DNA from: an uncultured Gammaproteobacteria bacterium
GTDB lineage: Bacteria; Patescibacteriota; Microgenomatia; Daviesbacterales; UBA10151
Direction: 5' to 3'
Assembly (NCBI GenBank): GCA_964360965.1
Contig: CAYHYM010000001.1
Location: forward strand, 30,001-62,000
DNA: 32,000 nt
The notes under the pieces are model-generated. The model did no database searches and was not told where the DNA came from. It worked only from the letters and a program-made list of their open reading frames with translations. This document shows, one piece after another, positions 2,137-30,033 of this stretch (position 1 is the first letter of the stretch; every line of letters starts with the position of its first letter). A program made the position numbers and the translations under genes.

Positions 2137-2140
2137 CTCA

Positions 2141-2779
2141 ATGGTAATTGAAAAAACGCCAGAAACTATGCCTACTTTGACTGTTCCTTATATCTCACAG
2201 AAAGATGATGAAACCAGCAATAGATATGGTAGAAGAGGGTGTGGATTAACGGCTTTGAGAATGGTGCTATCTTATTATGGTAAGGATCTGGGCATGGAGG
2301 AACTAGACCAGCTAGTAGTAGAGACCCACGCTTATCAGCCAATGGAAGGCAAGGAGGAAATAGGCGGTTGGATTCATGCAGGTATGACCAACATAGCTAG
2401 AAAAGTAGGACTCAGAGGATATAGAATCCATTATGGGATGCTTACTGAGCAAGATTTAATTAACTCTAAAGCTGTATTTGAGGAAGAAGGAATGGGTGAG
2501 GAAGAGTTTAAGGACTTTAGTGAGAGCTTTGACCAAGCCAGAACAGAAGGTCCCATGTCTGATCTCTATCGTTTAATTGATAAGGGCATTCCAGTGATTG
2601 CTTCAATGAAAAAATCTTATGCTAAAACTCTAGCTTCTCATATGATAGTTTTAATGGGCTATGGGGGTGATGAGTTAGTGGTTAATGACCCTTGGGAATT
2701 TGGACCAAATTATAAAGTTTCAGTTGATGAATTTAAGAAGCATTGGACTAATAGGGTAATCGTTATAAGCACTCCGTAG
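2141..2779 (+). CDS. Peptidase C39-like (C39_2-type) cysteine peptidase domain protein, no signal peptide
   Basis: 212 aa ORF starting 4 nt after the previous stop. Motifs are VPYISQKD...GCGLTALRMVLSYYG (Cys) and ASHMIVLMGYGGDELVVNDPW (His/Asp). Confidence 0.55.
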   Translation: MVIEKTPETMPTLTVPYISQKDDETSNRYGRRGCGLTALRMVLSYYGKDLGMEELDQLVVETHAYQPMEGKEEIGGWIHAGMTNIARKVGLRGYRIHYGMLTEQDLINSKAVFEEEGMGEEEFKDFSESFDQARTEGPMSDLYRLIDKGIPVIASMKKSYAKTLASHMIVLMGYGGDELVVNDPWEFGPNYKVSVDEFKKHWTNRVIVISTP

Positions 2780-2828
2780 CCCATAGTTTGAATTACTGGA
2801 CAAGTTGTGATATGATTATTTTAATAAT

Positions 2829-3380
2829 ATGTCAGAAAGAGATAGTGAACCTTTGCCCTCAGGGCAAAGATTTTTAGACAACAAATGGACCAGAACAGCT
2901 GCAGCTGTTCTGGGTATTCCAACTGCAATATCACCTATAGCTTGTGCACCCCAGGCTGCAGAAGTCAGACCCGCCAGCGCCAGCGAGTTAGAAAGTGGTC
3001 TAAGGATTCCTTATCCTGACTACCAAATAACTTTACCTGAAGGTTGGGTTAAAGGAGATGGATTTTACATTGGTCATGGTCATATCTTCTTTACTACGGA
3101 AAGACCAGTACCATCAGAAGTTGTTGGAAAAATAACTTTAGGTCGAACTAGCTCTCCAGAAGAAGAAGCCAAAAGAGTTCGTTCTACCTTAAGTGAACAA
3201 GTTCAAGTGGTTAGAGAGGATGAATTAAATATTGAGTACCTAATGGATGGTGATTTAACCTTACTAAGATTTAAAAACGATAATAAAGGTCAAGTAATAA
3301 TTATTGAAGTCTTGATTCCTAATGGTTTGGCAACTGTCTATCAAAAAGAGGCTCTAGAGTTTATAAACGCTATTCACTAA
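2829..3380 (+). CDS. Hypothetical exported protein, possible lipoprotein
   Basis: 183 aa ORF. The N-terminus KWTRTAAAVLGIPTAISPIAC resembles a signal peptide with a non-canonical lipobox (PIAC). No family recognised. Confidence 0.5.
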   Translation: MSERDSEPLPSGQRFLDNKWTRTAAAVLGIPTAISPIACAPQAAEVRPASASELESGLRIPYPDYQITLPEGWVKGDGFYIGHGHIFFTTERPVPSEVVGKITLGRTSSPEEEAKRVRSTLSEQVQVVREDELNIEYLMDGDLTLLRFKNDNKGQVIIIEVLIPNGLATVYQKEALEFINAIH

Positions 3381-6504: not shown

Positions 6505-7446
6505 TTAGAAAGTTACCTTCCTGGCAGGAAAAAGCAGTTTATAAATTGAGATTATAACATCAATTAAAGTAAAGGTGGAATCAGGGTGTTCTTTTTGGGG
6601 CAGCGCTACCAGCGGAGGTTCTTTTAAAGAAGCCTTAAAGGCTAAAATCTGGGCCTCCAAGTTTTCTATCTGGCTTTTTTGGGAATCAATAATGGCCTGC
6701 ATGCTTGATATTTGATTTTGTAAATTTTGCCCCTCTTTTCCCATTTTTAAAAGGGACTGATGTTCATCTGAGCTTACCATGGTTAAAAGTACTTGTTCTA
6801 ATCTGGCAGGGGAGTTGGTGTGAGCCGAAAGTCCAGCTTGATCCGGCTCTCTGCCTAAAACAGTTCTATAATAGCTCGCGATTACATCGCGTCGCTCTTG
6901 TAGCTGCCTTTCATCCATACCACTCACAATCATCTGTTTCCAGTTTAACCAGCCATCACCCGGACAGGCTGTTGATTGACCGGGCAGTTCTTTGTGGCCT
7001 TTGATACTATCCCAAGAAATAAAGCCCACTAGATCCCCAAAATTATTAATAAAAAAATCACAAAGTTTTCTGGCTGAGTCAAGCTGATCAGCAGTTGGAA
7101 TTTTACCTGCCATAAAATTACCAATTAAACAAATGCCAATCACTTGATCATTTAAATTGGCCACATTGGCCCGGGCAGTTGATAAATCACCCACATAATA
7201 AACCGTGCCATCTTTACCGATTAAAAAATGATAGCCAATTCCACCCCAGCCATTTGTTTGGATATGAAAACGGGCAATATCCAAAGGAGTTTGACTGTCC
7301 AAGGCAGCAGTGTGGTGGATGGCCAGGTATTTAACCTGAGAAGGTGTCCTGGTCCAGCTCCAATTATAGGCATCACCGGGCAGAGTATCTCTTAAATCTA
7401 TAAATTTATTACCTAAAGAGGGAATGGTTAAATCAATCCTGGCCAC
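6505..7446 (-). CDS. N-acetylmuramoyl-L-alanine amidase (Amidase_2/PGRP fold) with DUF4214-like and coiled-coil C-terminal regions
   Basis: Motifs are YLAIHHTA, GWGGIGYHFLIGKDGTVYYVGD, IGICLIGNF and KGHKELPGQSTACPG, followed by YYRTVLGREPDQAGL (DUF4214-like). No signal peptide. Confidence 0.85.
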   Translation of the reverse strand: MARIDLTIPSLGNKFIDLRDTLPGDAYNWSWTRTPSQVKYLAIHHTAALDSQTPLDIARFHIQTNGWGGIGYHFLIGKDGTVYYVGDLSTARANVANLNDQVIGICLIGNFMAGKIPTADQLDSARKLCDFFINNFGDLVGFISWDSIKGHKELPGQSTACPGDGWLNWKQMIVSGMDERQLQERRDVIASYYRTVLGREPDQAGLSAHTNSPARLEQVLLTMVSSDEHQSLLKMGKEGQNLQNQISSMQAIIDSQKSQIENLEAQILAFKASLKEPPLVALPQKEHPDSTFTLIDVIISIYKLLFPARKVTF

Positions 7447-7485: not shown

Positions 7486-8406
7486 TCAACGATTATTCCC
7501 CGAATGAAATGCCTTATGCACATCCTTTAGATGAGCATTGGTGACATGGGTGTATATTTGGGTGGTTTGGATGTTGGAGTGACCTAACATTTCCTGCACT
7601 GAGCGGATATCGGCTCCATTTATCAGTAAATCCGTGGCAAAAGAATGCCTTAAGGTATGGGGGGTGGCTTTGACAGGAAGACCTAAAGCTTTAACATATT
7701 TTTCCACAATTCGCTCAATTGAGCGGGAAGTAAGCCTCATAGCCTCACCGCTGTTTTGGGCATCTATCTTACCCTGATACCTGATAAAAAGAGGCTTGAG
7801 GGTATCTTTTCTTGCCATCAAGTATTTTTCCAAAAACTCAACTGCAGAATCAGATAAAAAAACTATCCTTTCTTTTCCACCTTTACCAACAACTCCAAAC
7901 TCGCGTCTGTTAAGATTTATGGTGTCCCTGTTTAAAGAAGCCAGTTCAGAAACCCGCAGTCCTGTTGAAAAAAGCGTCTCCAGAATGGCCCTATCCCTTA
8001 TGCCATCTTTTCTAGATGTATTCGGAGCATCAAGCAGTTGCTTAAGCGAAGCATCATCCAAAATCTTCAAAGGCCTTGGTTCTGCCTCTCCCAGTTCCAC
8101 TTTTTCAGGGGATAAAGTTTGGATATCTTGGCGGGCTAAATATCTTAAAAATGCCCGCAGAGCTATCATAAAATAGTTTTGGGTGACTCTTTTTAAGGAT
8201 CTTTTGGTCTTTGGATCCTGAAATCTTGCCAGATACAACCTGTATTTTCTGACCAAATTCAAATCTATATCTTTGGGATCAATATCATTCGAAAACTGCA
8301 AAAATCGTTTTAGATAATGATCGTAGTTTTTAATGGTTAACTGAGAGGCATTCCTCTCCAGCTCCAGATATTCTAAGAAATCAGTAATTAAGGCAGATAG
8401 GTTCAT
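7486..8406 (-). CDS. Tyrosine recombinase, XerC/XerD family
   Basis: I place the start at the MNLSALITDFLEYLE ATG (8406). The upstream 62 codons of track ORF 7486..8592 lie antisense-free inside the preceding gene and are Cys/Trp/Arg-rich junk. Motifs are GLRVSELASL, TPHTLRHSFAT and LGHSNIQTTQIYTHV. Confidence 0.88.
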   Translation of the reverse strand: MNLSALITDFLEYLELERNASQLTIKNYDHYLKRFLQFSNDIDPKDIDLNLVRKYRLYLARFQDPKTKRSLKRVTQNYFMIALRAFLRYLARQDIQTLSPEKVELGEAEPRPLKILDDASLKQLLDAPNTSRKDGIRDRAILETLFSTGLRVSELASLNRDTINLNRREFGVVGKGGKERIVFLSDSAVEFLEKYLMARKDTLKPLFIRYQGKIDAQNSGEAMRLTSRSIERIVEKYVKALGLPVKATPHTLRHSFATDLLINGADIRSVQEMLGHSNIQTTQIYTHVTNAHLKDVHKAFHSGNNR

Positions 8407-9113
8407 CACAAAAGTGCCAGGCCTAAAATTCCCAGGATGGTTAAGATTGAACCTACTATGGCCAGGGCAAAGGTAAACTGCTCTGTTCCTGCCGGGGGAA
8501 GAGCCTTTGGCGGCCCAACATAGGGAGCAGTAGTCCCTGAGGGTGTGGCCACACCAACACCAACTCCTGCTCCGGGCGCGCCAGCAGCGCAAGTGCCAGT
8601 CCCTATAGTATAATTTCCATTAACCACTGAGTTTAACACATCAGCCACTATATCCCCCCTTTGCACCACATTAGAATCTGAAGTTTTACTTTTATCATTG
8701 GAGTCAAAGTCAAATTTAATCTGACTGGCGCCAGTTGGAGCATCATCTTTAACTTTAAACTTAATGCTGGCCAAAGTTCCAGAACCCAAAAAACCAGTCG
8801 TGACAGAGGCCAAGCCTGAAATGGAAACTTTACCGTTGGACTCATCAATGCTATTTCCCGGGTAATCTGCATAAATTGATCCCACTGACATGGATGAAGC
8901 GCTAAACCTGGAAGTATCATATAAAACTATGGCATCAGTGCCATCAGTTTGAACCCCGCCAGTATTTAAAACAATATCCAATGAGAAGGTACAGCTTTTA
9001 TTAAAGGTACCCGAGGAAGGGGACAAAGACAGGGTGGCAGTCTGGGCAAAGGCAACCGGGCTTAATATAATTGTTATAAAAATTATAAAAATTATAATTA
9101 CTATAGTCTTCAT
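8406..9113 (-). CDS. Secreted cohesin-like domain protein with C-terminal LPPAG + TM anchor
   Basis: It has a classical signal peptide (..SPVAFA/QT). The cohesin-like pattern is LSLSPSSGTF...FSLDIVLNTGG..DGTDAIVLYD...GKVSISG...GTLASIKFKVK. The tail is KALPPAGTEQFTF followed by a 20 aa hydrophobic stretch. Confidence 0.7.
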   Translation of the reverse strand: MKTIVIIIFIIFITIILSPVAFAQTATLSLSPSSGTFNKSCTFSLDIVLNTGGVQTDGTDAIVLYDTSRFSASSMSVGSIYADYPGNSIDESNGKVSISGLASVTTGFLGSGTLASIKFKVKDDAPTGASQIKFDFDSNDKSKTSDSNVVQRGDIVADVLNSVVNGNYTIGTGTCAAGAPGAGVGVGVATPSGTTAPYVGPPKALPPAGTEQFTFALAIVGSILTILGILGLALL

Positions 9114-9664
9114 GGCAGAATATTTATCTCCAACTGATTAACTTTTTCCAAAATATCTGCTCCAGTGCCTGTTTCAGTCACATTAGTGTCCCCGGTTTTA
9201 CCTGGGGTAAAGTCCAATGAAACTTTGGTTAATCCTACAGCTTTGGCCACAAATGTTACTGCAGCAAACTGACCCTCCGGTATAACTCCGCCTTGCTGGG
9301 TGGTAATACCGGAGACAGATACTCTTCCCAAAGTCGCGTCAACCTTATTTTGCGGATAATCGGAAAAAATGGTCCCCAATACTGTTGGCTGGGCTGTTAA
9401 TAGTTTTGGGTCATAGGTAATTATCAAGTCCACCCCATCAACTTTTTTGGCCGAGGCGACATTTATAGTAACCAAAATTCTCTCCCTCACCCTAAGCTGA
9501 CTTTTATCAGCGGAGAGGCTGATGGAGGTTTGACTTGTAACAGGTACGGCAACAGTTGATGGAGGAGTTGGTTTAACCAAAGACCATCCGGCCCACAAAA
9601 CTTCTGCCAAAATTACCATACCCAGCACTATAAAAATGTTTCTTTTCACCAGATATTTTTGCAT
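9110..9664 (-). CDS. Membrane-anchored cohesin-like domain protein
   Basis: 184 aa ORF with an N-terminal TM helix. The cohesin-like pattern is ISLSADKSQL..ILVTINV..VDGVDLIITYDPKLL..GRVSVSG..GQFAAVTFVAK. It overlaps the downstream gene by ATGA. Confidence 0.65.
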   Translation of the reverse strand: MQKYLVKRNIFIVLGMVILAEVLWAGWSLVKPTPPSTVAVPVTSQTSISLSADKSQLRVRERILVTINVASAKKVDGVDLIITYDPKLLTAQPTVLGTIFSDYPQNKVDATLGRVSVSGITTQQGGVIPEGQFAAVTFVAKAVGLTKVSLDFTPGKTGDTNVTETGTGADILEKVNQLEINILP

Positions 9665-9683
9665 ACCTTTAGATTAAACTTTC

Positions 9684-9986
9684 TCAACTGCCGAAGTCAA
9701 GGGCGGGCAGTTGAATTAAAGTCGCACCGGGTGAGGGGGAAGGTGATGGACTAACTTGTGCTGACGGAGAAGAGGAGGGGGCTGTTTCCTTGGTAATTTT
9801 TAATTTTACATTAGAGTTGGTAGTTTCTGTGATGACCTGACCTGTATCATTCACAAATTCCACCTTGGGGATAAAGGCTGCCCGAGGCCTAAAAATTTGG
9901 GTCTGACGTACCAAATACAAAGTAGCCGGAATAGCCACCAAGATAATTACAAAGCCTATTAAAATTAATGTTTGTCTTTTAGTCAT
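9684..9986 (-). CDS. Anchor-module-only paralogue (TM + LVRQTQIFRPRAA + short beta segment + Pro/Ser linker)
   Basis: 100 aa ORF. Its first ~66 aa are near-identical to the N-terminus of ORF 10020..11288. A strong SD (AAGGGGGT) lies 6 nt upstream. It may be a truncated duplicate. Confidence 0.5.
   Translation of the reverse strand: MTKRQTLILIGFVIILVAIPATLYLVRQTQIFRPRAAFIPKVEFVNDTGQVITETTNSNVKLKITKETAPSSSPSAQVSPSPSPSPGATLIQLPALDFGS
9790..9986 (-). repeat. Copy A of duplicated 197 nt N-terminal anchor module (copy B is 11092-11288)
   Basis: The two copies are colinear from their start codons. Bases 9790-9866 are 100% identical to 11092-11168 (77 nt) and the flanks are diverged. Confidence 0.9.
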
Positions 9987-10019
9987 TAACTTACCCCCTT
10001 ATAGATTAACCGACTCTTT

Positions 10020-11288
10020 CTACAGTGTCAACCTTTTACTTGTTCTCATCACATTATCAAAGTCTCCATGGATATCCCACCAATTTCTCAATTTTTTACC
10101 CTGATATGTTTTAGTGTTATTTTTTCCCGGCATGTTTTGCAGCATCCAAATTTGATAATTCAGTGCAGAGTTATTATTTATCGGATCTATATCCTGACAA
10201 CCCCAAATTTGACAACTAATATCTGTCAGCTGACCTAAAGTATCCGGATTCCAATCCAGACAATCAGATTTTTGGGGGGTTGGATTATTCCTGTCATATT
10301 CTGATCTGGCATTTGGTGGATTGTGCGCTGAACCGCACCTGCCATTCACCCCCAAAGTCTGCGGGAAATTTGGTCCCTGGAATTTATCTCTGTATAAACT
10401 TTTATCAACAGCATCAATTTCTGCCTCTATTTGATGTCCCCAAGACTCCAAAGCTTCTGCAGTAAACCTTTGATAATTAAATGTGTACACACGATAAGTA
10501 TTTGCACAAATTGGCATATCATTCTCTCCGCCGCTATTTGAGATATCCCCAAACGGCCCTGACATTTTTGATTCATAAATATCAAGATAGGGGTGACTGT
10601 CTGCTTTTGGCGAACCCTGATAACCCCAAAGCCATACCTCTTTTACCCCCTTACTGTCAACATAGTCGCAAATGTTGTGAGTTTGCATGATGCCCCGGTA
10701 GTCAGGGTAGGTTGGTTTATCCAACCGGGCTTTAATCGGTACTGCCTGCAGGTATTCTTTGGTATCAACGATTGTATAACGGAGAACCGGTTTTGCATTC
10801 GGATCTTTATATCCCAAATATGTGCTGGCTTTCTCCAAAGATATTTTGAGCTGGCTGGTCACATCATCAGTTCTTTTTTTGATCAGTTCATATGAATCAC
10901 CAATATCTCCTGTCACAGTAATATCAATACACTGCTGTTGGGGATTTAAGGAACAGGGAACAGAAGGAAAATATTTAATCAGCAACACATTTATATTAAA
11001 ACTTGTATCCAAGCCTGGTTGGAAAGTTGGAGAAGGGGATGGAGATGAAATTTGTGTGGGAGAAGGACTAGGAAAAGTTGTCACTGCTTCTTTGGTAATT
11101 TTTAATTTTACATTAGAGTTGGTAGTTTCTGTGATGACCTGACCTGTATCATTCACAAATTCCACCTTTGGAATAAAAGCTGCTCTGGGTTTAAAAATCT
11201 GAGTCTGCCTGACCAGATACATGGTGGCAGGAATGGAAATAAGAATAATGACGAAGCCTATGAGAATAAGTATTTGTTTTTTCGTCAC
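10020..11288 (-). CDS. Anchored extracellular protein, unknown ~330 aa Cys/Trp-rich C-terminal domain
   Basis: 422 aa ORF with a GTG start and AAGGGA upstream. It has a TM helix plus LVRQTQIFKPRAA motif, then a PSPSP linker. No family recognised. Confidence 0.7.
   Translation of the reverse strand: MTKKQILILIGFVIILISIPATMYLVRQTQIFKPRAAFIPKVEFVNDTGQVITETTNSNVKLKITKEAVTTFPSPSPTQISSPSPSPTFQPGLDTSFNINVLLIKYFPSVPCSLNPQQQCIDITVTGDIGDSYELIKKRTDDVTSQLKISLEKASTYLGYKDPNAKPVLRYTIVDTKEYLQAVPIKARLDKPTYPDYRGIMQTHNICDYVDSKGVKEVWLWGYQGSPKADSHPYLDIYESKMSGPFGDISNSGGENDMPICANTYRVYTFNYQRFTAEALESWGHQIEAEIDAVDKSLYRDKFQGPNFPQTLGVNGRCGSAHNPPNARSEYDRNNPTPQKSDCLDWNPDTLGQLTDISCQIWGCQDIDPINNNSALNYQIWMLQNMPGKNNTKTYQGKKLRNWWDIHGDFDNVMRTSKRLTL
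11092..11288 (-). repeat. Copy B of duplicated N-terminal anchor module
   Basis: See copy A. Confidence 0.9.
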
Positions 11289-11305
11289 TTTTCACTTTTC
11301 CCTTA

Positions 11306-13183
11306 TCACTTTAACAATATGCTGGCCGTTTGAGGAGGTATTGGTCCCCAAGCGCCACTTTCAAAAAACTGCACATACGCTGACTTTAATCCTGGTCCAC
11401 CTGTTAAAGTCAGATCCAAAGTGAAAACTGTTGCTGTACCCATATCACTTTGGGCTAAAACAGTGGCAAAATTAGGATCAAAGGAAACCCTGAAAGGCAG
11501 CAGGCCTGAAGGCACAGCAGAGGCGGTGGCTGTGGGGGAGGCTGAAGAAGTTGCCACCGGCGAGGCAGATGCAGTTGCCACAGGTGATGCGGCAGGACCA
11601 CCTACAGGGGGTTCTTTTGGTAGAGGGGGAGAGAACTGCTCATCAGATTGGTTGATATTCTGCCTCATACAGGCATAATCAATGGAATTAATCCTGCCAT
11701 CCCCATTAAAATCACCTGTTTTGACCACGTCTTTTACCAAACTCCACTGGCGGGTTAATTCTGCCCGATCAAAAGCATTTATTTTTCCATCAGCCTTGAT
11801 GGCTGGAGCAATATCACCAACCAGCAAAGTTACAGCCTCCAAATTCTTGGTACCGGTTTTGGTTTCAAATTCCACTTTTTTAGAGAGGGTATTGGGTGCT
11901 TTAATAACCAGGGCATACTTTTTATTTTTCTCCAGCTTTGGTGTAAAACCTGTCACTTTGCCATCTTTGTCCAGTTTGACTGTTTGTTCCAGAACCGGCT
12001 CCGGGTTTTCCGACTCGGCGCTGACCAGTACATTGGCAAAAATCTTCACTAACACATTATCCACTGCCAAATTCCCGCCAGCGCTCTTACATTGGGTTAG
12101 AGCGGCAAAGGTGACAGTGGTAGTGCCCACCGAACAGTCGGCTCTGGCAGTTTTGCTGTCATCACGGGTCAGCTCCACATCATTTTTGCCTTCCAATTTT
12201 TTATCCAAAATAGCTGTCACCACCCCTGTTGATTCATTCCAACTCAAAACTTCCGCATCAGTTCCACCCACCTTAACTTTGCCTTTACCTTTGGGGCCAA
12301 TATTGGTACCGGTGATGGTGATGCTGGTACCGGATCCGGAAATGGCATGAGTACAGCTGGCCTCAGAAATAGCAGGATTGGGGATAAAGTTGATCATCCG
12401 ATCTCTTCTTGAAATAACACCAGTATTTGATATAAAGAGGGCATGAATAGTATTTCTGCCAGGTTTGGTTAAGGTATGGGGTATCAGCTTGGGATGAGTA
12501 TCATAAAGTTGAGCGCCTTTATCTGCGCAAGAGGTAGCAGTAATTGGCCCTTTATCAGATATAAAGAAACAGGCAGTAGAAACAGGTGGAGTTGGGGATG
12601 GTGATGGGCTAGGTGATGGACTGGGACTTGGTGAAGGTGAAGGAGACGGTGAAGGAGACGGAGCCTGGTTGACTGTCAGGGCAGAAGGGGAAACAGACAG
12701 GGTTTCCAATGATAAATCTGATTTAACATTTTTCAGCAAGGAGGTATTCAGTATATCAATGCCATACTGATTGGGGGATTGGGATGTAAACACAAGTTCT
12801 ACAAACGAGGTAGTAACTGCCGCAGGCAATGTAAAGCTGGCTGCGGTGTCCAATTCTCCAACCAGTTTAATCTGGCCGTTTAAATTGATCTGGGCCAGAT
12901 TTTGGTCTCCATCGCCCTCCAATACATCAGATTTTTTGCCAACTTTGTAGGTAATGCTTTTCAGCTTAGCCTTAACTGGATCAAATTTAACATTAATTTG
13001 ATACATCCTTATCTTTAAGGCGGCAGTTGAAGTAAGCTGAGCATTGACTGTGAAATCCTGCCCTGCCGGCGCTACCAAGGCAGGCGGATTAAATGAGGAA
13101 GAAACTGTCTGGCCAAATGCGGCCCTGGGCAAGCCTAGTGTAGCAAGTAACAATAAAATAATAACAGTAAATTTTCTTTTCAT
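11306..13183 (-). CDS. Secreted multidomain protein: cohesin-like + (SP)n linker + IPT/TIG-like + beta-sandwich + dockerin-like repeats
   Basis: 625 aa ORF with signal peptide ..LPRAAFG/QT. The TIG-like segment is SGSGTSITITGTNIG..VKVGG. The dockerin-like Ca-binding pair is GDIAPAIKADGKINAFDRAEL ... GDFNGDGRINSIDYACM. Confidence 0.75.
   Translation of the reverse strand: MKRKFTVIILLLLATLGLPRAAFGQTVSSSFNPPALVAPAGQDFTVNAQLTSTAALKIRMYQINVKFDPVKAKLKSITYKVGKKSDVLEGDGDQNLAQINLNGQIKLVGELDTAASFTLPAAVTTSFVELVFTSQSPNQYGIDILNTSLLKNVKSDLSLETLSVSPSALTVNQAPSPSPSPSPSPSPSPSPSPSPSPTPPVSTACFFISDKGPITATSCADKGAQLYDTHPKLIPHTLTKPGRNTIHALFISNTGVISRRDRMINFIPNPAISEASCTHAISGSGTSITITGTNIGPKGKGKVKVGGTDAEVLSWNESTGVVTAILDKKLEGKNDVELTRDDSKTARADCSVGTTTVTFAALTQCKSAGGNLAVDNVLVKIFANVLVSAESENPEPVLEQTVKLDKDGKVTGFTPKLEKNKKYALVIKAPNTLSKKVEFETKTGTKNLEAVTLLVGDIAPAIKADGKINAFDRAELTRQWSLVKDVVKTGDFNGDGRINSIDYACMRQNINQSDEQFSPPLPKEPPVGGPAASPVATASASPVATSSASPTATASAVPSGLLPFRVSFDPNFATVLAQSDMGTATVFTLDLTLTGGPGLKSAYVQFFESGAWGPIPPQTASILLK
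12601..12643 (-). repeat. (Ser-Pro)n linker DNA, near-identical to 15707-15749
   Basis: gtgatgggctaggtgatggactgggacttggtgaaggtgaagg matches 15707-15749 at 42 of 43 positions. Confidence 0.85.
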
Positions 13184-13188
13184 ACTTT

Positions 13189-14115
13189 TTAACGCTTCCA
13201 GATATTCAAATCATCAGCGTCTATTTGACCGTCACCGTCAAAATCAGGGTTAACAGAGACAGGTATTTTACCTAAGTTTACCGCAGTCAGCCAGTAAAGA
13301 TAATCATTTTCATCTTTCACTCCGTTACCATCAGCATCACCTAGGGTTCTTGATGGTCTGTTGCACCAGCTATTTTTATCCTGGGTAGAGGGCACAATGT
13401 TGTAGATAGTTGCCGGAAGAGAACATTGTATCGGACCGCTTCCAGGAGGTAGTCCGTAATCTACCCCTGTCAGTTTGGTAAACTGGCAAGGAGAGGAGCA
13501 GCTGTTATCGGCTTGACACCCACATCCTGTCACAGGCGGGAGCGGAGAAGGCGAAGGAGAAACAGCAGGCCCTGTCACCATATATCTCCCTTCAATGTTT
13601 TCTGCAGTTATTAAAGTTGTTTCCGCTCCGGAGGCCACCAGTTCAAAGGCAGGGGCAAACCTGACAGTTGATACCCCTCCTGCCCTGGCCTTAAACTTGA
13701 GCGTTCCCAAAATCAGAACTCCTGAAGAGATGGGATCTTTCGACTTTCTTACAGCAGTAAAGCGGAACTGGCCCAAGGGATCATCCACAGTATTTCTTAA
13801 AGTGTCAAAACTTGAAAGAGCAGGGTCAAATGTGACAAGCTGTAAGATATTTGTGTTGTAGGCAAGCTGTATGTTTACTCCGGTAATATCCTGGTTTCGT
13901 GCATTCATCTTCAGCTGCACCTCAAATTCTTCTCCCGTATTTTTGCTGGATTCAGCAGGAGAGAGAGACAGTGTTACTGCGCCAGTAGGCACCGCAGCCC
14001 TACTTCTTAGGTCCTGAATCTGCCTGACCAGATATAAAGTTACTGGTATGGCCACAATCAGAATAGCCACTACCATAAACGGTATAATTTTTATCAATTT
14101 ATCTCTATCTATCAT
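13189..14115 (-). CDS. Anchored cohesin-like + dockerin-like protein
   Basis: 308 aa ORF with a TM helix and LVRQIQDLRSRAA motif. The cohesin-like pattern is VTLSLSPAES..FEVQLKMNA..ITGVNIQLAYN. The C-terminus GDADGNGVKDENDYLYW...DFDGDGQIDADDLNIW is dockerin-like. Confidence 0.7.
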   Translation of the reverse strand: MIDRDKLIKIIPFMVVAILIVAIPVTLYLVRQIQDLRSRAAVPTGAVTLSLSPAESSKNTGEEFEVQLKMNARNQDITGVNIQLAYNTNILQLVTFDPALSSFDTLRNTVDDPLGQFRFTAVRKSKDPISSGVLILGTLKFKARAGGVSTVRFAPAFELVASGAETTLITAENIEGRYMVTGPAVSPSPSPLPPVTGCGCQADNSCSSPCQFTKLTGVDYGLPPGSGPIQCSLPATIYNIVPSTQDKNSWCNRPSRTLGDADGNGVKDENDYLYWLTAVNLGKIPVSVNPDFDGDGQIDADDLNIWKR

Positions 14116-15686
14116 AGGTAACCATTTTTCCAGATACTGAAATCCACGGTATTGATTGAGTCGTCGCAGTTGAAGTCTGCCTTTTTACTCTTGGTTAAGG
14201 AATGTAACTCCCTGAACCAGATGTTAAAGTCTGAAAGATCCACATCACCATCTTTGTCAGCATCACCCTGGGAGGGGACACAAACCGCTGGTGTTGGGGA
14301 AGGGGAAGGAGAGGGAGAAGGGGAGGGGGAAACTGTAGGTTGAGGAGCTACACAAAAACCTCTATTTGGTTGATTGGCTTCACAAACAGGTTTTTGGGGG
14401 TCAACACAAAAAGAAGCATCTGTTTGACATTGACTGCCATGACATATCAGACAATCCCTAGCCTTGGAGGCTGAGACGCATTGGGCATCAATACATTTAT
14501 CTTTAAATTCCCTAAAATCAATTGACACCTTTCTTCTACATCTGTCATCCTCATCATCTTTGGTGGCTGCAAAATTATCACAATTAGGATCTTCTGTCTG
14601 TGTTTTGGGGTTATTTCTACAAACTCCACACTGGCCAAAGTTATAGGTATTTAGGATGGGGGTAGTGGTAGTTACACAGGCAAAACAAGATTGGCCTGAA
14701 ACAGCACAAGTCAGCTGGCTGGCTGGAACCCCTTGATAAGCCGGGGTATCAGAAGATGAAAGGCAACCAATAGTACCGGCTGGTTGGCACTGATATGTCC
14801 TTTCAGCTCCAAAAAGATTGCCTGCGGATACTCCCACAGGACAAGTGGGAACACCTAGGGCCCCACCGGGTAGGGTGGTAAAAACAATCAGACTAAGGTT
14901 ACACTGCCCACCAAATTCCTGACTTTTATCATTAAACATTCTCCACCTGAAGGGATATGTCCCAGCAGTTGTGGGCCCAATTGTGACATTAAAGTCCTTT
15001 TGATTGCCTGGTTCAATTGTGCTACCTACACTAATATTGGTTTTATCTGGCTTGAATGCCAACTCAGCACCTGAACCACCAGTGAATCTTAAGGAATAAT
15101 TTGATTGCCAGTTGTTAGTAACACCCCCAGTAGGGTCTTGAGTATTTCTTAAAATCATGGTGATGTTATAAGATTTGTTAATCACAACAATACCAGGGTG
15201 TTTATCATAAGGTTGGCCATCAATGGTGACGTCTGTACAGTCTGCCCTGTCTGCACCACCCACACCTACATTGCCAGATGAAGGTGAAGGTGGAGGTGGT
15301 GGTGGTGAGGCTGCAGCGGGACACTGCTTTGGTTCTGTACAACTGGAAGCATCACACTGCGGTTGATCACCTGGATCATTAGGATCGGCCACACCGTCAC
15401 TATTGATGTCCAGGGTGTTATCCGTATAAGTGGCAAAAGCCGTTAGATAACAACCGTTGGCATCTACAGATCCACAACTACCAACCGGCTGACCAACTTG
15501 TGGCTGGTTTGGCCTATTACACGGGAAAAGACCATCTGGGGCAGGACTCATAATCTCTGCTGCCTTTGATTTAAGTTGAGTTTGTTGTTGGACCAGTCTT
15601 ACTCCCACCAGAAGCCCCACAGCCAAAACCCCCAAAATCAACAGGGCAATGATATTTCTTTTAGATAATAATTTTGTTGCTTCCAT
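14112..15686 (-). CDS. Anchored Cys-rich protein with TSP3-like Ca-binding segment, NBR1-type Ig-like module and C-terminal dockerin-like repeats
   Basis: 524 aa ORF with a TM helix and LVQQQTQLKSKAA motif. Other elements are DINSDGVADPNDPGD, PGNQKDFNVTIGPTTAGTYPFRWRMFND, many CxxC pairs, an (SP)n linker, and GDADKDGDVDLSDFNIW...DFNCDDSINTVDFSIW. Confidence 0.65.
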   Translation of the reverse strand: MEATKLLSKRNIIALLILGVLAVGLLVGVRLVQQQTQLKSKAAEIMSPAPDGLFPCNRPNQPQVGQPVGSCGSVDANGCYLTAFATYTDNTLDINSDGVADPNDPGDQPQCDASSCTEPKQCPAAASPPPPPPSPSSGNVGVGGADRADCTDVTIDGQPYDKHPGIVVINKSYNITMILRNTQDPTGGVTNNWQSNYSLRFTGGSGAELAFKPDKTNISVGSTIEPGNQKDFNVTIGPTTAGTYPFRWRMFNDKSQEFGGQCNLSLIVFTTLPGGALGVPTCPVGVSAGNLFGAERTYQCQPAGTIGCLSSSDTPAYQGVPASQLTCAVSGQSCFACVTTTTPILNTYNFGQCGVCRNNPKTQTEDPNCDNFAATKDDEDDRCRRKVSIDFREFKDKCIDAQCVSASKARDCLICHGSQCQTDASFCVDPQKPVCEANQPNRGFCVAPQPTVSPSPSPSPSPSPTPAVCVPSQGDADKDGDVDLSDFNIWFRELHSLTKSKKADFNCDDSINTVDFSIWKNGYL

Positions 15687-15689
15687 ATT

Positions 15690-16088
15690 TTATATTCCAG
15701 GTGATGGTGATGGACTAGGTGATGGACTGGGACTTGGTGAAGGTGAAGGGCTTGGACTGGGGCTGGGAGACAGTGATGGAGAGGGGGATGGGGATGGTGG
15801 GAGTGGCAAATTAATTCCTTCCTCAGATTTTAAGAAAGGTGAATCCAACACCACATTTATTTCAGAATCTGTAGATGTACATTCACCAACAGCCGGACAA
15901 TTAACACCTGATTTTCCTTCTATTGCTCTAAAGGAGATCGGATCACCACCGGCTGCTTTGGATTTTAATTGCTGTTGGGTTTGGACCAGTTTAATCCCCA
16001 AAGGAATGGCCACAATCATAATGGCCAAAATCAAAAATGAAATGATGTTCTTCCTGGAAAAAAGACTGTTGTCTGAAGAATAATCCAT
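15690..16088 (-). CDS. Anchor-module-only protein ending in a long (Ser-Pro)n tail
   Basis: 132 aa ORF with a TM helix and LVQTQQQLKSKAA motif. The last ~35 aa are SPSPSP... and the stop lies 3 nt before the next gene's start. Confidence 0.5.
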   Translation of the reverse strand: MDYSSDNSLFSRKNIISFLILAIMIVAIPLGIKLVQTQQQLKSKAAGGDPISFRAIEGKSGVNCPAVGECTSTDSEINVVLDSPFLKSEEGINLPLPPSPSPSPSLSPSPSPSPSPSPSPSPSPSPSPSPGI

Positions 16089-16121
16089 TACCCTTACTCT
16101 AAAGCAAAAGATTGAAGTTTG

Positions 16122-17573
16122 TCAATCTGTTTTTAACTTGGTCAAATCTACAATCACAAAATCATGGGTCTGATGGATAATCTTATATTTTTCCATGACT
16201 TGCTTTGTCTGATCATCAAGAGCCACAGACACATAATGGGTGGCCCCCAGCTTAATCAGCTCGGTCACACTCAGGTAAACAGAAGACCAGCCAGGTCGAT
16301 CCAGCTGGTATAAAAAAGCGGTATTTCTCTCAAATGGAGCAATCACCCTGGCTTCTTTGGGTAAAATTTCTCTGGCCACATCTCCAGCTTTCATAATCTC
16401 ACCATGATTAATCTGATAAAAACCCCTCACCTGATACCAGCCAAAAGCAAAGGTTAGAGCAATCAAAGCTAAGGTAGCAGGAATGGTGATCCAGGCAGTC
16501 AACCATCTGCCGGAGGCAAAAATTAGAAAATCTACTGAGCGGGCCATAAACACAGCCAAAATCGGCACCAGGGGAATCTGATAATAATCATGTTCCACAT
16601 TGCCGCGAGCCAAAATCAGCACATATAAACTTAAACCCAGCAGCCACCAGTGGAAAAACCAGGTTTGACCTTGTTTCGGCTTCAAAAATACTCCCAGGGT
16701 AGCCAGGAAAAAACCAGCCACAGTTAAAATTTCCCTGCCCAGTCTTTCTGCAATAATCCAATGTAAGAAAGCTCCTTTGTAGCGGATGTTGTCACCATTA
16801 AAAAGCCAGGCGGCAGAAGGGATGCCTTCAGGATATTGCAGCATCCATAAACGCCATGATAACAGAGGTACAGTGGTCAAAGCAACCAGCAGATACAGCT
16901 TAAGGTTAGTCAGGGCCCGCAATCCCCGGTAATGGAAAGATAAATATGCCATCGGCATCAATAGATAAAGCGTGTATGGTTTGGTGAGAATGGCCACATT
17001 CAAAAACAACACAGTCAAAACAAAAAAAAACCAGGTTTCTTTTTCCAAAAACCTGATAAAAAAATAAAGGGCTGACAAAGAGGCAAAGATCATCATCGGC
17101 TCCGGCATAAACACTCTGGAGAAATAAATATTATACGGTAAAAAGGCCAAAAAGAGAGCTGAGATAAGAGCAACCCTGATCCCTAAAAATTTTTTGACCA
17201 GAAGATAAAGGAGAATAATTGACAAAAGTGAGAAAACAACTGACATTTGCCGGCCATAGATTACCTCCACCTGTCCCATGATCAGATATACCACTGCCAC
17301 CAGACCGCTATAGATGGGAAATTCCACAAAGCGGAAACGCTGCGGGTTGGGACGGGAATCGTGGGTAACAGGAGCCATGTCATCATATTTAGGATGCAAA
17401 AAATCAAAGCCTTCTTTGATAAAATTTCTGGACACAGCTGCCGTGTCAACCTGCCTCCAGGAATGCCAGTCACCCAGGGGAATGTTGATCCGGTACTGGC
17501 GGATCCAAAAGGCCCCAATTAAAATGATTATCAAAAAGAGCAGGGGACTGGAAAAAACCTTTTTAAGTACCAT
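16122..17573 (-). CDS. GT-C fold glycosyltransferase, family 39 (PMT_2/ArnT-like)
   Basis: About 12 TM helices, with an N-terminal loop GDWHSWRQVDTAAVSRNF typical of PMT_2-type proteins. I prefer the MVLKK ATG at 17573, because the track start at 17597 would place TGCTATAAT inside the ORF. Confidence 0.8.
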   Translation of the reverse strand: MVLKKVFSSPLLFLIIILIGAFWIRQYRINIPLGDWHSWRQVDTAAVSRNFIKEGFDFLHPKYDDMAPVTHDSRPNPQRFRFVEFPIYSGLVAVVYLIMGQVEVIYGRQMSVVFSLLSIILLYLLVKKFLGIRVALISALFLAFLPYNIYFSRVFMPEPMMIFASLSALYFFIRFLEKETWFFFVLTVLFLNVAILTKPYTLYLLMPMAYLSFHYRGLRALTNLKLYLLVALTTVPLLSWRLWMLQYPEGIPSAAWLFNGDNIRYKGAFLHWIIAERLGREILTVAGFFLATLGVFLKPKQGQTWFFHWWLLGLSLYVLILARGNVEHDYYQIPLVPILAVFMARSVDFLIFASGRWLTAWITIPATLALIALTFAFGWYQVRGFYQINHGEIMKAGDVAREILPKEARVIAPFERNTAFLYQLDRPGWSSVYLSVTELIKLGATHYVSVALDDQTKQVMEKYKIIHQTHDFVIVDLTKLKTD

Positions 17574-17588: not shown

Positions 17589-17665
17589 GCAAGACAAATT
17601 AGACAGTATCTTGCAAAATCATACATTAAACAAAAACGCCGTAATTAATATTGTCCGACAAGGAC

Positions 17666-17842
17666 CAGTATATCTGTGAGTCAGTATATCAGTGTTTCAG
17701 TGGATTAAAAATATTTGATAATTTGATAATATGGAAGTGTGATAAAAGATGTGAATATAAACTTTTGTCAAAAAGAATAAACTCCTTGCACAAATACTGG
17801 CGCTTTTAACACCGATACACAGATATACTGAAAGATACACTG
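17666..17842. repeat. Inverted iteron-like words GTATATC / GATA(T/C)AC flanking a ~120 bp AT-rich core
   Basis: CAGTATATC occurs at 17666-17674 and 17682-17690. GATACAC is at 17814, GATATACTG at 17822-17830 and GATACACTG at 17834-17842. There is a perfect 13 bp inverted repeat, 17666-17678 against 17818-17830. The core contains the tandem TTTGATAAT x2. Confidence 0.7.
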
Positions 17843-17935
17843 AAACTCCGAGCCCCTAGAAGGGCCTAAAAACGGCTGGTTAGGGGAGGGCCGCTATCTG
17901 CCATCATCTAGTTTAGGCTGTCAGGAAGGGCCAAA

Positions 17936-17970
17936 TTGGTAGTTAGTAGTTTGTAGTTGGTAGTTGGTAG
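17936..17970. repeat. Five tandem heptamers TTNGTAG
   Basis: The sequence reads ttggtag ttagtag tttgtag ttggtag ttggtag. Confidence 0.85.
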
Positions 17971-18665
17971 AAAACAGCAAATTTTTGAAGGGAAATATGA
18001 GAAATTAGGCACACAAAAATGCTTGATAAAAAACTTATGCCTTTTATAATTAAATTTATCCTGAGCAAGCCTGAAGGACTCCTCCCTAATCCCACTTCTC
18101 TGACATCGCATAACCATGATTGTCCGACATTATTATATTTGGGGAAGAATGCGGAAAAGAGAGAATAGCCTTGGTCTTCTGATACGTGAGTAAAGAATCT
18201 CTAGATTACTCTCATGATCCTTCGCTAACGCTTGGGATGACAACTAGAAGAGCACCTCTCCTCCAAGAGGCTTCGGGTATTCTATGTAAGAAAGAATAAG
18301 CAATTATATGCACTAACTGACAGATTACTTTTAATCTTCAAGCGTCCATCCTTTTGCCGTAGGCAAAAGTGTACAGAGCTAATAACGAGAGTAAGATCGT
18401 GTGAGTCCTTAGAGTACGGAGTGCTATTGTGACAACGATCACAATAGTAGCGCAGTACTCGGGGGCTCGTAGTGCACGAACATCGTGAGAGCACGAAGAG
18501 ACCCATAGTTTTCCACATTTGAACTTGGCAAATATATAAAACTATATCACCTATAGTTTTCACGAAATATCTCATAATTTTTCACAGTTCGACTTCGCTC
18601 ACTGCAGGCACTCCTCTACTTCCAATTTGTCTTAACAATCCAATTCTCCATTGTCAATTGATTCT

Positions 18666-20056: not shown

Positions 20057-20725
20057 TTATTCCAAAATAAGATGTTCAATCAGTTTTAATTTTCTTTGAT
20101 AGTCAGCTTGATCAAATACAAAATGTTTATATTTTTCCCTGCTTCCAAACATATCCAACACTAAATTTGGTTCTAAAAAACCATCATTACCAGTAAGATA
20201 ATTTGAAAAGGATGACCACGGATACTTTTCTAATTCACCAACAGTTCTAACTATAAAATTTGTATAAGGATTTAGGTGTATATATCTTGAAACATGAATA
20301 AACTGTTCATCAGTCTCTATCCTCTTGGCTTTAAATTGATCTAAAAATAAGGAGCCGTCCCGTTCATTCCTGGTATTATGATAACGAGTATAACTATTTT
20401 GGAAATTACCTATAAATTTTGAAATACCATCCTCCATTTTCTGCTTTAACAAGAAATGAAAATGATTGGGCATTAAACAAAAACAAATAATATCAACTAA
20501 TTTTTCTGCCTGGTTCGTAATTTTGGTAATCTCTTTTTGTTTATCTTGTTCCAACTCCAAAAATTTAGATAATCTAATAGGTGGGCTTGAAACTCTATAA
20601 AATTCAATTGCCAAAATTGCCCTTTGGTATTCTTTTTTTGTGGTAAAGGTGGGTTGCTTATTTATACCTCTGTTGTAAACATGGTAGATCTCATCCGTTA
20701 CAAGTGGAATTTTTCTACCTGGCAT
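20057..20725 (-). CDS. REP-associated tyrosine transposase-like (Y1/HUH, IS200-like) protein
   Basis: It has the HUH motif MPNHFHFLL, the catalytic-Tyr region SRYIHLNPY, and YPWSSF as is typical of RAYTs. TATTAT lies 6 nt upstream of the ATG. Confidence 0.85.
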   Translation of the reverse strand: MPGRKIPLVTDEIYHVYNRGINKQPTFTTKKEYQRAILAIEFYRVSSPPIRLSKFLELEQDKQKEITKITNQAEKLVDIICFCLMPNHFHFLLKQKMEDGISKFIGNFQNSYTRYHNTRNERDGSLFLDQFKAKRIETDEQFIHVSRYIHLNPYTNFIVRTVGELEKYPWSSFSNYLTGNDGFLEPNLVLDMFGSREKYKHFVFDQADYQRKLKLIEHLILE

Positions 20726-29987: not shown

Positions 29988-30033
29988 AATTTGCTATGTA
30001 TGCCCATTATAGTATTAGAGGGGGTGATAAAAA

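Follow-up and report, generated by a model that had tools for sequence, protein, structure and literature searches.

What do cohesin and dockerin modules hold together in a small-genome bacterium belonging to the candidate phyla radiation (CPR)? This question is raised by a stretch of 32,000 nucleotides (hereafter the window; positions 30,001 to 62,000 of contig CAYHYM010000001.1), in which nine co-directional open reading frames (ORFs) run along the minus strand from 8406 to 17573. An initial annotation of the window had described these nine genes as tightly packed and had suggested that they encode a cohesin/dockerin-type surface assembly with no enzyme cargo. The packing was borne out: the window ORF list gives all nine ORFs at the positions first assigned to them, and the intergenic distances are -4, 19, 33, 17, 5, -4, 3, and 33 nt. 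The annotation had also taken the organism for a small-genome, probably episymbiotic one. A CPR/Microgenomates-like assignment is supported, because the named homologs of the locus proteins come from metagenome-assembled genomes (MAGs) labelled Candidatus Daviesbacteria, Microgenomates, or "Patescibacteria group". We consider it probable, on balance, that the locus encodes a surface assembly built on cohesins and dockerins but of a non-cellulosomal kind, that it belongs to a CPR bacterium of the Microgenomates/Daviesbacteria type, and that the assembly serves adhesion.

Two conserved cohesin proteins carry membrane-anchor sequences

The initial annotation had counted four cohesins in the locus. 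We judged matches against the curated Pfam cut-offs, which are 24.1 bits for Cohesin (PF00963), 22.9 bits for Dockerin_1 (PF00404), and 28.0 bits for N_BRCA1_IG. Three of the four cohesins lie above the cut-off, one of them (coh235) also has the fold when compared with the PDB, and the fourth, at the N-terminus of the 625-aa protein described below, is only probable. Two of the three belong to small proteins at the end of the gene run. The terminal gene, coh235 (235 aa, 8406-9113), matches Pfam Cohesin at 32.7 bits. Its product is composed of a classical signal peptide with a predicted cleavage at AFA/QT, a cohesin (residues 26-174, window 8592-9038), a G/A/P-rich spacer, and the C-terminal tail LPPAGTEQFTFALAIVGSILTILGILGLALL (window 8409-8501). 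We found 841 homologues of coh235, more than 120 of which reach 56-74% identity, all built on one 226-259-aa architecture.

The coh235 profile retrieved nothing useful from the PDB by sequence, and we compared structures. An AlphaFold2 (AF2) model from 26 orthologs had a predicted local distance difference test score (pLDDT) of 83.6 and about 12 strands, and its top 50 Foldseek matches in the PDB were all cohesins. The best matches were type I cohesins from C. acetobutylicum, Acetivibrio thermocellus, Pseudobacteroides cellulosolvens, and C. cellulolyticum (E 1.6e-10 to 5e-9, target-normalised template modelling (TM) score 0.72-0.81, root-mean-square deviation (rmsd) 2.4-3.0 A). The non-cellulosomal Archaeoglobus cohesin 2xdh was also matched (E 1.2e-8, target TM 0.77). 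We conclude that coh235, as modelled, has the cohesin beta-sandwich (jelly-roll) fold; among the window cohesins, the fold was tested for coh235 alone.

The cell-anchoring tail that had been noticed on the terminal member is real and almost invariant in the 26 coh235 orthologs. It follows the pattern LP[PED][AGR]G[TS]E-x-T-x-T, after which a 22-residue hydrophobic helix ends the protein (...GLALL). We rejected coh235 as a sortase (LPXTG) substrate: the tail lacks Thr-Gly and basic C-terminal residues, and some orthologs lack the LP. None of the NCBIfam sorting-signal models matched coh235 at E<=1, and there is no sortase gene in the window. The tail may be a distinct C-terminal sorting signal or a plain tail anchor.

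The first of the two conserved anchoring cohesins, coh184 (184 aa, 9110-9664; Pfam Cohesin 31.1 bits), begins with a transmembrane anchor, behind which lies its only cohesin (window about 9113-9523). It aligned to the coh235 family with a probability of 98.7% in hhalign. No locus protein gave a Pfam match to a surface-layer homology (SLH) domain; the anchors of the locus are transmembrane helices.

Three proteins carry dockerins

The annotation had further assigned dockerins to three proteins, two of which would carry a cohesin as well. Both statements held up, although the dockerins differ in how they are recognised by the Pfam model. The largest protein, cohTIGdoc625 (625 aa, 11306-13183), matches Dockerin_1 at 34.8 bits, TIG at 25.3 bits, and Cohesin at 18.3 bits, the last below the cut-off. 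Its N-terminal half has a signal peptide, a probable cohesin (25-175, window 12659-13111), an (SP)n linker, and the TIG domain (272-342, window 12158-12370). The C-terminal half contains a middle domain, the dockerin (456-515, window 11639-11818), and a 110-aa C-terminal domain. The signal peptide is of the classical, cleavable type (AFG/QT), and cohTIGdoc625 is the only member of the locus without any membrane tether. We call its cohesin probable because the ortholog in one relative (L053) passes the Pfam Cohesin cut-off at 28.4 bits.

The other two dockerin proteins are cohdoc308 and IGdoc524. The adaptor-type protein cohdoc308 (308 aa, 13189-14115; Pfam Cohesin 25.9 bits) starts with a signal/anchor, a cohesin (about 45-195, window 13531-13983), and a PS linker, and ends with a Cys-rich stretch and a dockerin (256-308, window 13192-13350). 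Its cohesin aligned to the coh235 family over 155 columns in hhalign (86.6%, E 4e-6). IGdoc524 (524 aa, 14112-15686) matches N_BRCA1_IG at 28.7 bits and Dockerin_1 at 21.5 bits. It has a signal/anchor, a Cys-rich region, and the Ig-like N_BRCA1_IG domain (190-261, window 14904-15119), which are followed by a second Cys-rich region, a PS linker, and a dockerin (472-524, window 14115-14273). Both the TIG and the N_BRCA1_IG domains, which the initial annotation had named among the families to search for, were recovered.

For Dockerin_1, cohTIGdoc625 is above the cut-off, IGdoc524 is just below it, and the C-terminus of cohdoc308 had no match. We examined the Ca-binding loops and found that ligand positions 1, 3, 5, 9, and 12 are intact in 5 of the 6 loops of the three dockerins. 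Two canonical 12-residue Ca loops are present in cohdoc308 (DADGNGVKDEND and DFDGDGQIDADD), two canonical loops are present in IGdoc524 (DADKDGDVDLSD and DFNCDDSINTVD), and the second loop of cohTIGdoc625 is canonical (DFNGDGRINSID). A profile of 14 locus-type dockerin segments, which included all three from the window, matched type I dockerins in the PDB at E 3.6e-15 to 1e-9. The matches to the dockerins of Cel9D, CelD, CelS, and Xyn10B extended across both repeats, and calmodulin EF-hands appeared only near 1e-3. Matched alone, cohdoc308 gave a weak hit to the double dockerin 8x39 in the PDB (E 0.008). Judged from these sequences, the two tandem F-hands of a dockerin are present in the window.

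The dockerin protein and the cohesin pair form a conserved core

The 625-aa protein has 26 detectable homologs, and their contigs are syntenic with the window; a scan of genome contigs with the 625-aa protein alone yielded no relative. We compared eight syntenic relatives (L049-L057). In these, YebC, RuvC, and DUF5656 are followed by a gene-free gap of ~0.9 kb, by one to seven variable secreted proteins, and then by the cohesin pair, which consists of a cohesin of ~200 aa with an N-terminal helix and a cohesin of ~235 aa with a signal peptide and a C-terminal helix. XerC/D stands after the pair in every relative, and an ortholog of coh184 is present in 8 of 8. The gene directly 5' of the pair has a dockerin by a locus-derived hidden Markov model (HMM) in all eight, a TIG-dockerin protein precedes the pair in seven, and in five (L051, L053, L054, L056, and L057) Pfam itself recognises TIG plus Dockerin_1 in the gene directly upstream.

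The synteny that the initial annotation had set as a check is therefore found for a core, namely a dockerin protein, a cohesin, and a cohesin in that order (8/8), and not for the glycosyltransferase gene or for the whole set. We dropped the idea that the nine genes travel as one unit: the neighbourhoods of unk422 homologs are not conserved. By sequence comparison, the conserved core is a TIG-dockerin protein with two anchored cohesins, and the remainder is variable. Close relatives have one to three dockerin proteins of 600-990 aa, and the additional dockerin proteins differ in number and architecture in every genome. Within the 625 family the dockerin is the best conserved segment, with a mean identity of 76% compared with 39-55% for the other domains, as would be expected if the dockerin contacts conserved cohesins.

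Adjoining cohesin and dockerin genes were also found in four unrelated CPR loci (L004, L027, L034, and L044). In L004, a dockerin-tagged protein with the domain of unk422 (see below) is directly followed by a cohesin gene (41 bits). The cluster in L027 (2558-16334; Patescibacteria MAG B106T1L10) encodes five dockerin-tagged proteins and three cohesin-type proteins. The dockerin proteins carry Peptidase_M11/Reprolysin, CARDB, the unk422 domain, Peptidase_M10, or a cohesin in the manner of an adaptor, most with Big_7/fn3 spacers; one of the cohesins passes the Pfam cut-off, and two were detected only by the locus-derived HMM. This cluster looks like a protease-bearing cohesin-dockerin complex.

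These results bear on the possibility that the modules are real and yet do not pair. The dockerins would then be generic Ca- or glycan-binding modules, the cohesins inert Ig-like spacers, and the cluster a group of co-regulated secreted proteins. The Pfam scores are modest (18-35 bits), and many dockerin proteins of non-cellulolytic organisms reportedly have no identified cohesin partner, both of which would suit this explanation. It does not account for the adjacency of cohesin and dockerin genes in 9 of 9 syntenic loci (the window and the eight relatives) as well as in the four unrelated CPR loci, nor for the dockerin being the most conserved segment in the 625 family. In addition, the only anchor-less member carries a dockerin, and the coh235 model lies close to functional type I cohesins (the rmsd range given above). 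We regard unpaired modules as very improbable.

unk422 encodes a conserved domain in a variable cargo slot

The initial annotation had seen no catalytic module and no enzyme cargo. This claim became doubtful, because unk422 has a conserved domain to which Pfam is blind, relatives of the domain are often fused to dockerins and carbohydrate-binding modules (CBMs), metalloproteases neighbour it in L027, and a BNR_4 protein occupies the same slot in L053. The unk422 protein (422 aa, 10020-11288) has an N-terminal module made of a signal/anchor and a beta-hairpin (1-67, window 11088-11288), a PS linker, and a 330-aa conserved domain (residues 92-422, window 10023-11015). Searches of Pfam, NCBIfam, and the PDB by sequence, with a profile as well for the PDB, gave no useful match. 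Homologs of the domain are nonetheless numerous: 223 proteins are 47-83% identical, and the family at large runs to 2184 clusters at E<=1e-3, or 752 at E<=1e-30. Multidomain surface proteins that contain the domain can be as long as 4654 aa, and some of its occurrences are in MAGs with the labels Chloroflexi, Actinobacteria, Polyangiales, and Nitrososphaera.

The near-invariant residues of the domain are H285-x-x-E288, H322, and six Cys. In 51 homologs, 40 positions are invariant, including H285, Q286, E288, E290, H322, and the six Cys, and the H, E, H and cysteines are conserved to more than 90% in a more divergent set. The AF2 model was confident (pLDDT 87.8 overall, >95 across the domain), and no convincing structural neighbour was found for it in the PDB or BFVD. 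The best fold matches were consistently metzincin catalytic domains (TACE, adamalysins, fragilysin, ulilysin) and were weak (E 2e-3 to 1e-2, target TM 0.30-0.44). We rejected unk422 as a metzincin: its helix G-H285-Q-I-E288-A-E290-I-D lacks HExxH, the TM scores are low, and there is no profile homology. When M10 and M11 proteins were aligned with hhalign, only the dockerin aligned, with no relation of the domain.

The fusion partners of the domain point to its function. Dockerin_1 is the commonest, present in 7 of 51 close relatives and in 11 of 66 distant ones, and further partners are PA14, F5/8 type C, CBM96, CBM_2, C-type lectin (Lectin_C), fn3, PKD, PG_binding_1, and type IV pilin N-termini. 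Because these partners are dockerins and carbohydrate-binding modules, we consider the unk422 domain a probable secreted hydrolase, that is, an extracellular catalytic module acting on glycans. In the window itself, unk422 has no dockerin.

The N-terminal module (a hydrophobic segment, LVRQTQIFxPRAA, and FIPKVEFVD..G..ITE) heads a different C-terminal domain at the same gene position in relatives. An unannotated domain of ~170 aa is found there in L049 and a BNR_4 propeller protein (29.6 bits) in L053, and L051 has no cargo gene. In genomes with a cargo gene, the next gene is small (85-100 aa) and encodes only the N-terminal module and a PS tail. The corresponding gene in the window is dup100 (100 aa, 9684-9986), which has the signal/anchor and hairpin module of unk422 and then only a PS-rich tail. 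Its sequence at 9782-9985 forms a 204-nt direct repeat, 82% identical, with the 5' end of the unk422 gene (11084-11287). The small gene dup100 is conserved, with orthologs in L049 and L053 and a length of 85-86 aa in relatives. We conclude that unk422 occupies what appears to be a variable cargo slot.

A cargo slot raises the question of whether the locus is a degradative enzyme-display machine, analogous to a cellulosome, for polymers of a host or of the environment. It would serve mainly to keep hydrolases on the cell surface (in the window the unk422 domain, in relatives BNR_4 or metalloproteases), with the Ig and TIG proteins as scaffolds and substrate binders. The dockerin-tagged Peptidase_M11/Reprolysin, Peptidase_M10, and unk422-domain proteins of L027 would fit, as would the dockerin-tagged unk422-domain protein next to a cohesin gene in L004, the prevalence of dockerins and CBMs among the fusion partners, and the propeller protein in the slot of L053. 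The window does not follow this pattern. Its three dockerin proteins have no recognisable or candidate catalytic domain, unk422 lacks a dockerin, and no multi-cohesin scaffoldin exists to gather several enzymes. Moreover, 5 of the 8 syntenic relatives (L051/L052, L054, L055, and L057) have no recognisable enzyme gene, with the qualification that some of their proteins have no Pfam match. We therefore consider enzyme display quite unlikely as the main role.

A model for the assembly and its weighing against a surface layer

Our model starts from what the analysis shows, namely the module identities, the membrane-anchor sequences, the synteny, and the association of the unk422 domain with dockerins. 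On this footing we infer that the cohesins and dockerins of the locus pair with one another. The two small conserved cohesin proteins, fixed in the membrane by the N-terminal helix of coh184 and by the C-terminal LPPAG-plus-helix tail of coh235, would be sockets, and the secreted, anchor-less cohTIGdoc625 would be held by plugging its Ca-dependent dockerin into either of them. The distal cohesins of cohTIGdoc625 and cohdoc308 would take further dockerins, those of cohdoc308 and IGdoc524. Four cohesins and three dockerins would thus give a short chain running from the anchor through cohTIGdoc625 and cohdoc308 to the Ig-like, Cys-rich IGdoc524 at the tip, and the gene order would then read from tip to base. 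IGdoc524 would be the distal, adhesin-like member, and the exposed Ig, TIG, and Cys-rich modules would provide adhesion to a host cell or a substrate. Beside the assembly, unk422 would be a membrane-tethered protein whose probable metal-dependent, glycan-directed hydrolase domain is attached through dockerins in other CPR genomes. If the N-terminal signals are left uncleaved, the same contacts would cross-link tethered proteins into a layer.

Several observations weigh against this adhesive chain. We identified no known adhesin family, host, or ligand. The N-terminal cohesin of cohTIGdoc625 is weak (18.3 bits in Pfam, and a probability of 21% against the coh235 family in hhalign), and of the two loops in its dockerin the first is degenerate (positions 1 and 3) and carries an insertion. 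Three of the proteins, cohdoc308, IGdoc524, and unk422, have long N-terminal hydrophobic segments of their own; were these to stay uncleaved, the proteins would already be tethered, and there would be less need for a chain than for a cross-linked layer. For unk422 a catalytic function is putative, with fold matches below a TM of 0.45, no HExxH, and no metzincin relation in hhalign. Finally, the relatives are one lineage with a collinear neighbourhood (YebC-RuvC-DUF5656 ... Xer ... gyrA), so that the synteny may in part be simple inheritance. Against pure inheritance, we argue that the variable segment always keeps a dockerin protein, that the dockerin is best conserved, and that unrelated CPR loci pair the same kinds of genes.

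The cross-linked layer leads to a further explanation, in which the locus anchors a surface layer (S-layer) or another envelope lattice. The part of surface-layer protein would fall to the large TIG-dockerin protein, together with its partners, and the membrane cohesins would be the conserved anchor in the role played elsewhere by SLH domains or lipid anchors. The locus would then be housekeeping envelope architecture and not a host-attachment device. In line with this, the cohesin pair is lineage-wide, apparently confined to a single locus, and highly conserved, and it lies among housekeeping and cell-wall genes (ruvC, xerC, gyrA, ddl, murC/D, and alr). A conserved anchoring module, here the dockerin, on a fast-diverging body is the pattern of S-layer proteins, and the membrane tethers on several members would suit a cross-linked layer. 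Groundwater ultra-small cells of OP11, OD1, and WWE3, when imaged by cryo-electron microscopy, are also reported to bear an S-layer of unknown composition. The locus proteins, however, have no similarity to any known S-layer protein, and their Cys-rich regions are atypical of such proteins. The dockerin proteins vary greatly in copy number and architecture among close relatives, which would be unusual for a lattice former. We consider an S-layer unlikely and favour the adhesive cohesin-dockerin assembly.

Comparison with known cohesin-dockerin systems

The clostridial cellulosome (A. thermocellus CipA with SdbA/OlpB as anchoring scaffoldins; P. cellulosolvens ScaA/ScaB) resembles the locus in having type I-like cohesins and dockerins. 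The best structural matches of coh235 were 6kgf, 4fl4, 4ums, and 2vn6, and the dockerin profile matched CelD, CelS, and Xyn10B. Anchoring proteins and two-module adaptor proteins, Pro/Ser/Thr-rich linkers, and clustered genes are likewise shared. The locus differs in having at most one cohesin per protein, with no multi-cohesin scaffoldin, and neither a CBM3 nor another CBM was found in it. Attachment is by transmembrane-helix anchors instead of SLH domains or sortase, no dockerin-tagged carbohydrate-active enzyme (CAZyme) is present in the window, and the host genome is that of a small-genome CPR bacterium and not of a cellulolytic Firmicute. By its sequence, the locus thus lacks the features that define a cellulosome, namely a multi-cohesin scaffoldin with CBM3, dockerin-tagged CAZymes, and SLH or sortase attachment.

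Among single proteins, coh235 comes closest to ScaE of Ruminococcus flavefaciens, a sortase-anchored single cohesin of the same layout. ScaE bears an LPXTG-type signal at its C-terminus and is the docking site for scaffoldins with dockerins and for other proteins. Structures of ScaE and of the autonomous cohesin CohG (2zf9, 4n2o, and 4wkz) were among the fold matches of coh235, with E about 1e-6. In contrast to ScaE, the coh235 tail (LPPAG[TS]E) has no basic end and is not recognised by the NCBIfam LPXTG models, and the window has no sortase. The coh235 fold is also closer to type I cohesins than to type III cohesins.

In function, the closest class is that of non-cellulosomal pairs, such as those of Archaeoglobus fulgidus (2xdh) and of the GH84 toxin complex of Clostridium perfringens (2jh2/2w1n), in which the modules join extracellular proteins in organisms that do not degrade cellulose. 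Such non-cellulosomal modules are said to have been surveyed since 2009. The A. fulgidus cohesin-dockerin pair binds and has been used for surface display (PMC9705933, PMC12484212). Whereas these systems are isolated pairs or links between enzymes, the locus is a conserved, operon-like set with two membrane anchors, two-module adaptors, and a variable cargo slot, found across a whole CPR lineage.

Within the CPR, the L027 cluster is like the locus in combining cohesin-type and dockerin proteins, one of them with an unk422 domain. It differs in its explicit dockerin-tagged M10 and M11/Reprolysin cargo, its genes are not orthologous to coh184 and coh235, and it lies outside the RuvC-Xer frame. 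A second point of comparison is SEML1_0315, a dockerin-domain envelope protein of the Saccharibacterium Southlakia epibionticum, which transposon sequencing showed to be indispensable for epibiotic growth; its presumed role is to target glycans of the host, whether for adhesion or for degradation (PMC10633639). We count this finding in favour of our model. The protein is likened to the locus by its domain, as a CPR cell-envelope protein with a dockerin, and not by sequence comparison; that study describes no cohesin partner or operon for it, and it belongs to another CPR class. Our literature search found no paper that links cohesins to CPR bacteria, and the Southlakia dockerin protein was the only related report (PMC10633639). 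We conclude that the locus is a lineage-wide, non-cellulosomal form of the known cohesin-dockerin systems, undescribed and conserved, and not categorically new.

Accessory genes, N-terminal signals, and surroundings of the locus

The first gene of the run was correctly identified at the outset as a glycosyltransferase of the GT-C type, although it is not the conserved first gene of the system. The GT-C gene (483 aa, 16122-17573; PMT_2/GT39-like) matches Pfam PMT_2 (PF13231) at 51.4 bits and PMT at 32.2 bits, has a weak Agl23-like match in NCBIfam, and shows multiple hydrophobic segments in its sequence. In all four relatives whose locus can be read at that end (L051, L054, L055, and L056), no such gene stands between DUF5656 and the first locus gene. 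Its sole close relative in the JGI metagenomes, L058, has different upstream neighbours. For these two reasons we rejected GT-C as a conserved part of the system; it is an accessory, and this genome is the only one in which the gene was found at this position. In this genome, the adjacent GT-C may O-glycosylate the PS-rich linkers. We propose this by analogy, our sole basis, with PMT-type protein O-mannosyltransferases, which act on Pro/Ser/Thr-rich linkers.

The gene after GT-C, PS132 (132 aa, 15690-16088), is an ORF with no Pfam family. It encodes an N-terminal hydrophobic signal/anchor with a LVQTQQQLKSKAA motif, a short segment with two Cys, and a (PS)n tail. Orthologs are present in L049, L051, and L055, and the ortholog is the first conserved gene of the locus in relatives. 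A 50-nt stretch of its (PS)n linker (15700-15749) is 96% identical to one in the 625-aa gene (12594-12643), which suggests that linker-coding repeats of the locus recently exchanged sequence or underwent gene conversion.

PS132, IGdoc524, cohdoc308, unk422, and dup100 share an N-terminal signal, in which a basic residue and a hydrophobic stretch of ~20 residues, often with an internal Pro, are followed by [YRK]LVxQxQxxx[SP][KR]A[AS] (LVxQxQxxx[SP][KR]A[AS] being the part common to the five). The same signal is present on unrelated secreted proteins of several CPR genomes (L013, L015, L027, L034, L041, and L044/L045), and none of the curated models matched it. Two readings suggest themselves, a Sec signal typical of the lineage, with cleavage after S/P-x-A, or a signal anchor. 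In either case the conserved polar c-region is unusually long.

Between DUF5656 and the locus lies a gene-free conserved region (17598-18665, minus orientation). Its equivalents in relatives (L051:2958-3871, L054:3972-5230, L055:5263-6046, and L056:460-1372) contain blocks that are 70-84% identical by blastn. The first block (about 18488-18612) holds an invariant 15-mer, AATGTGGAAAACTAT, at 18505-18519, which occurs exactly once in each of the window, L051, L054, L055, and L056 and is preceded by two CGTGAAAA direct repeats ~21 nt apart. The second block (about 17840-18150) holds a mini-ORF of 13 codons that runs straight into a GGCCC/GGGCC hairpin; its product reads M-M-x-D-S-x-x-P-L-x-S-R-F-stop in four of the five genomes. 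We found no Rfam or tRNA match and no covariation in this region, and on the lack of an Rfam match and of covariation we rejected a structured RNA. The region may combine a promoter/operator with a leader, and in the window the GT-C gene is an insertion that separates it from the first conserved gene. Scans for promoters and terminators gave no excess over shuffled expectation, so the transcription unit is not defined by them.

The co-directional run extends past 8406, where the start of a XerC/D-type tyrosine recombinase gene overlaps the coh235 stop by 1 nt (TGATG). This protein (306 aa, 7486-8406, minus strand) matches Phage_integrase at 148 bits and has a SAM-like N domain; the 368-aa ORF listed for it over-extends into coh235, and the real protein is of ~306 aa. 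It is probably a housekeeping gene, yet a member of the same tight run. We rejected a role for the adjacent Xer in a shufflon or other invertible segment: no supporting inverted repeats were found. An Amidase_2+DUF4214 gene lies on the same strand 39 nt beyond Xer (6505-7446) and stays nearby in L049, L051, and L055.

The low-coordinate flank consists of chromosomal housekeeping genes (gyrB, gyrA, the Amidase_2 gene, and XerC/D). Three genes sit between gyrB and gyrA (1498-3380), encoding a Peptidase_C39-like cysteine protease (2141-2779) and two unannotated proteins of 212 and 183 aa; the relatives have other genes beside gyrA. The high-coordinate flank holds DUF5656, RuvC, an IS200-like gene, YebC, a two-component system, and Lgt. 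The IS200-like Y1 transposase homolog adjoins RuvC at the same position in the window (20057-20725) and in L051 (781-1449). Such positional conservation is unusual for a mobile element, and the gene may have been domesticated.

Implications for CPR biology

The CPR, or Patescibacteria, make up a large share of bacterial diversity, and most are thought to live attached to host cells. To our knowledge, the hosts, the attachment apparatus, and the S-layer proteins of Microgenomates are all unknown. The locus offers a concrete, experimentally tractable candidate, with two conserved membrane sockets and variable surface proteins that would bear the plugs. Being small and soluble, the modules lend themselves to binding tests in vitro, for which the organism need not be cultivated. 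The locus would also take cohesin-dockerin biology past the cellulosome, to a minimal system in which each protein has one cohesin. Its unk422 family, with no Pfam model for its 2184 clusters, is flagged by its fusion partners as a likely new class of extracellular enzymes.

The elements of these explanations can be joined in a broader reading, which we put forward tentatively and hold to be somewhat doubtful as a whole. The locus would encode a Microgenomates surface organelle, in which two universal membrane cohesins are sockets for diversifying dockerin-tipped adhesins or S-layer-like proteins. A cassette slot would exchange enzyme heads behind a fixed N-terminal module (unk422 in the window, BNR_4 in L053, and the domain of L049, which is of unknown nature), and unk422 would be the founding member of a family (>=750 clusters, that is, at least 750) of dockerin-associated, secreted, metal-dependent, glycan-active enzymes. 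If this is true, cohesin-dockerin assembly would be a general principle of surface construction and host interaction in CPR bacteria, independent of cellulose degradation.

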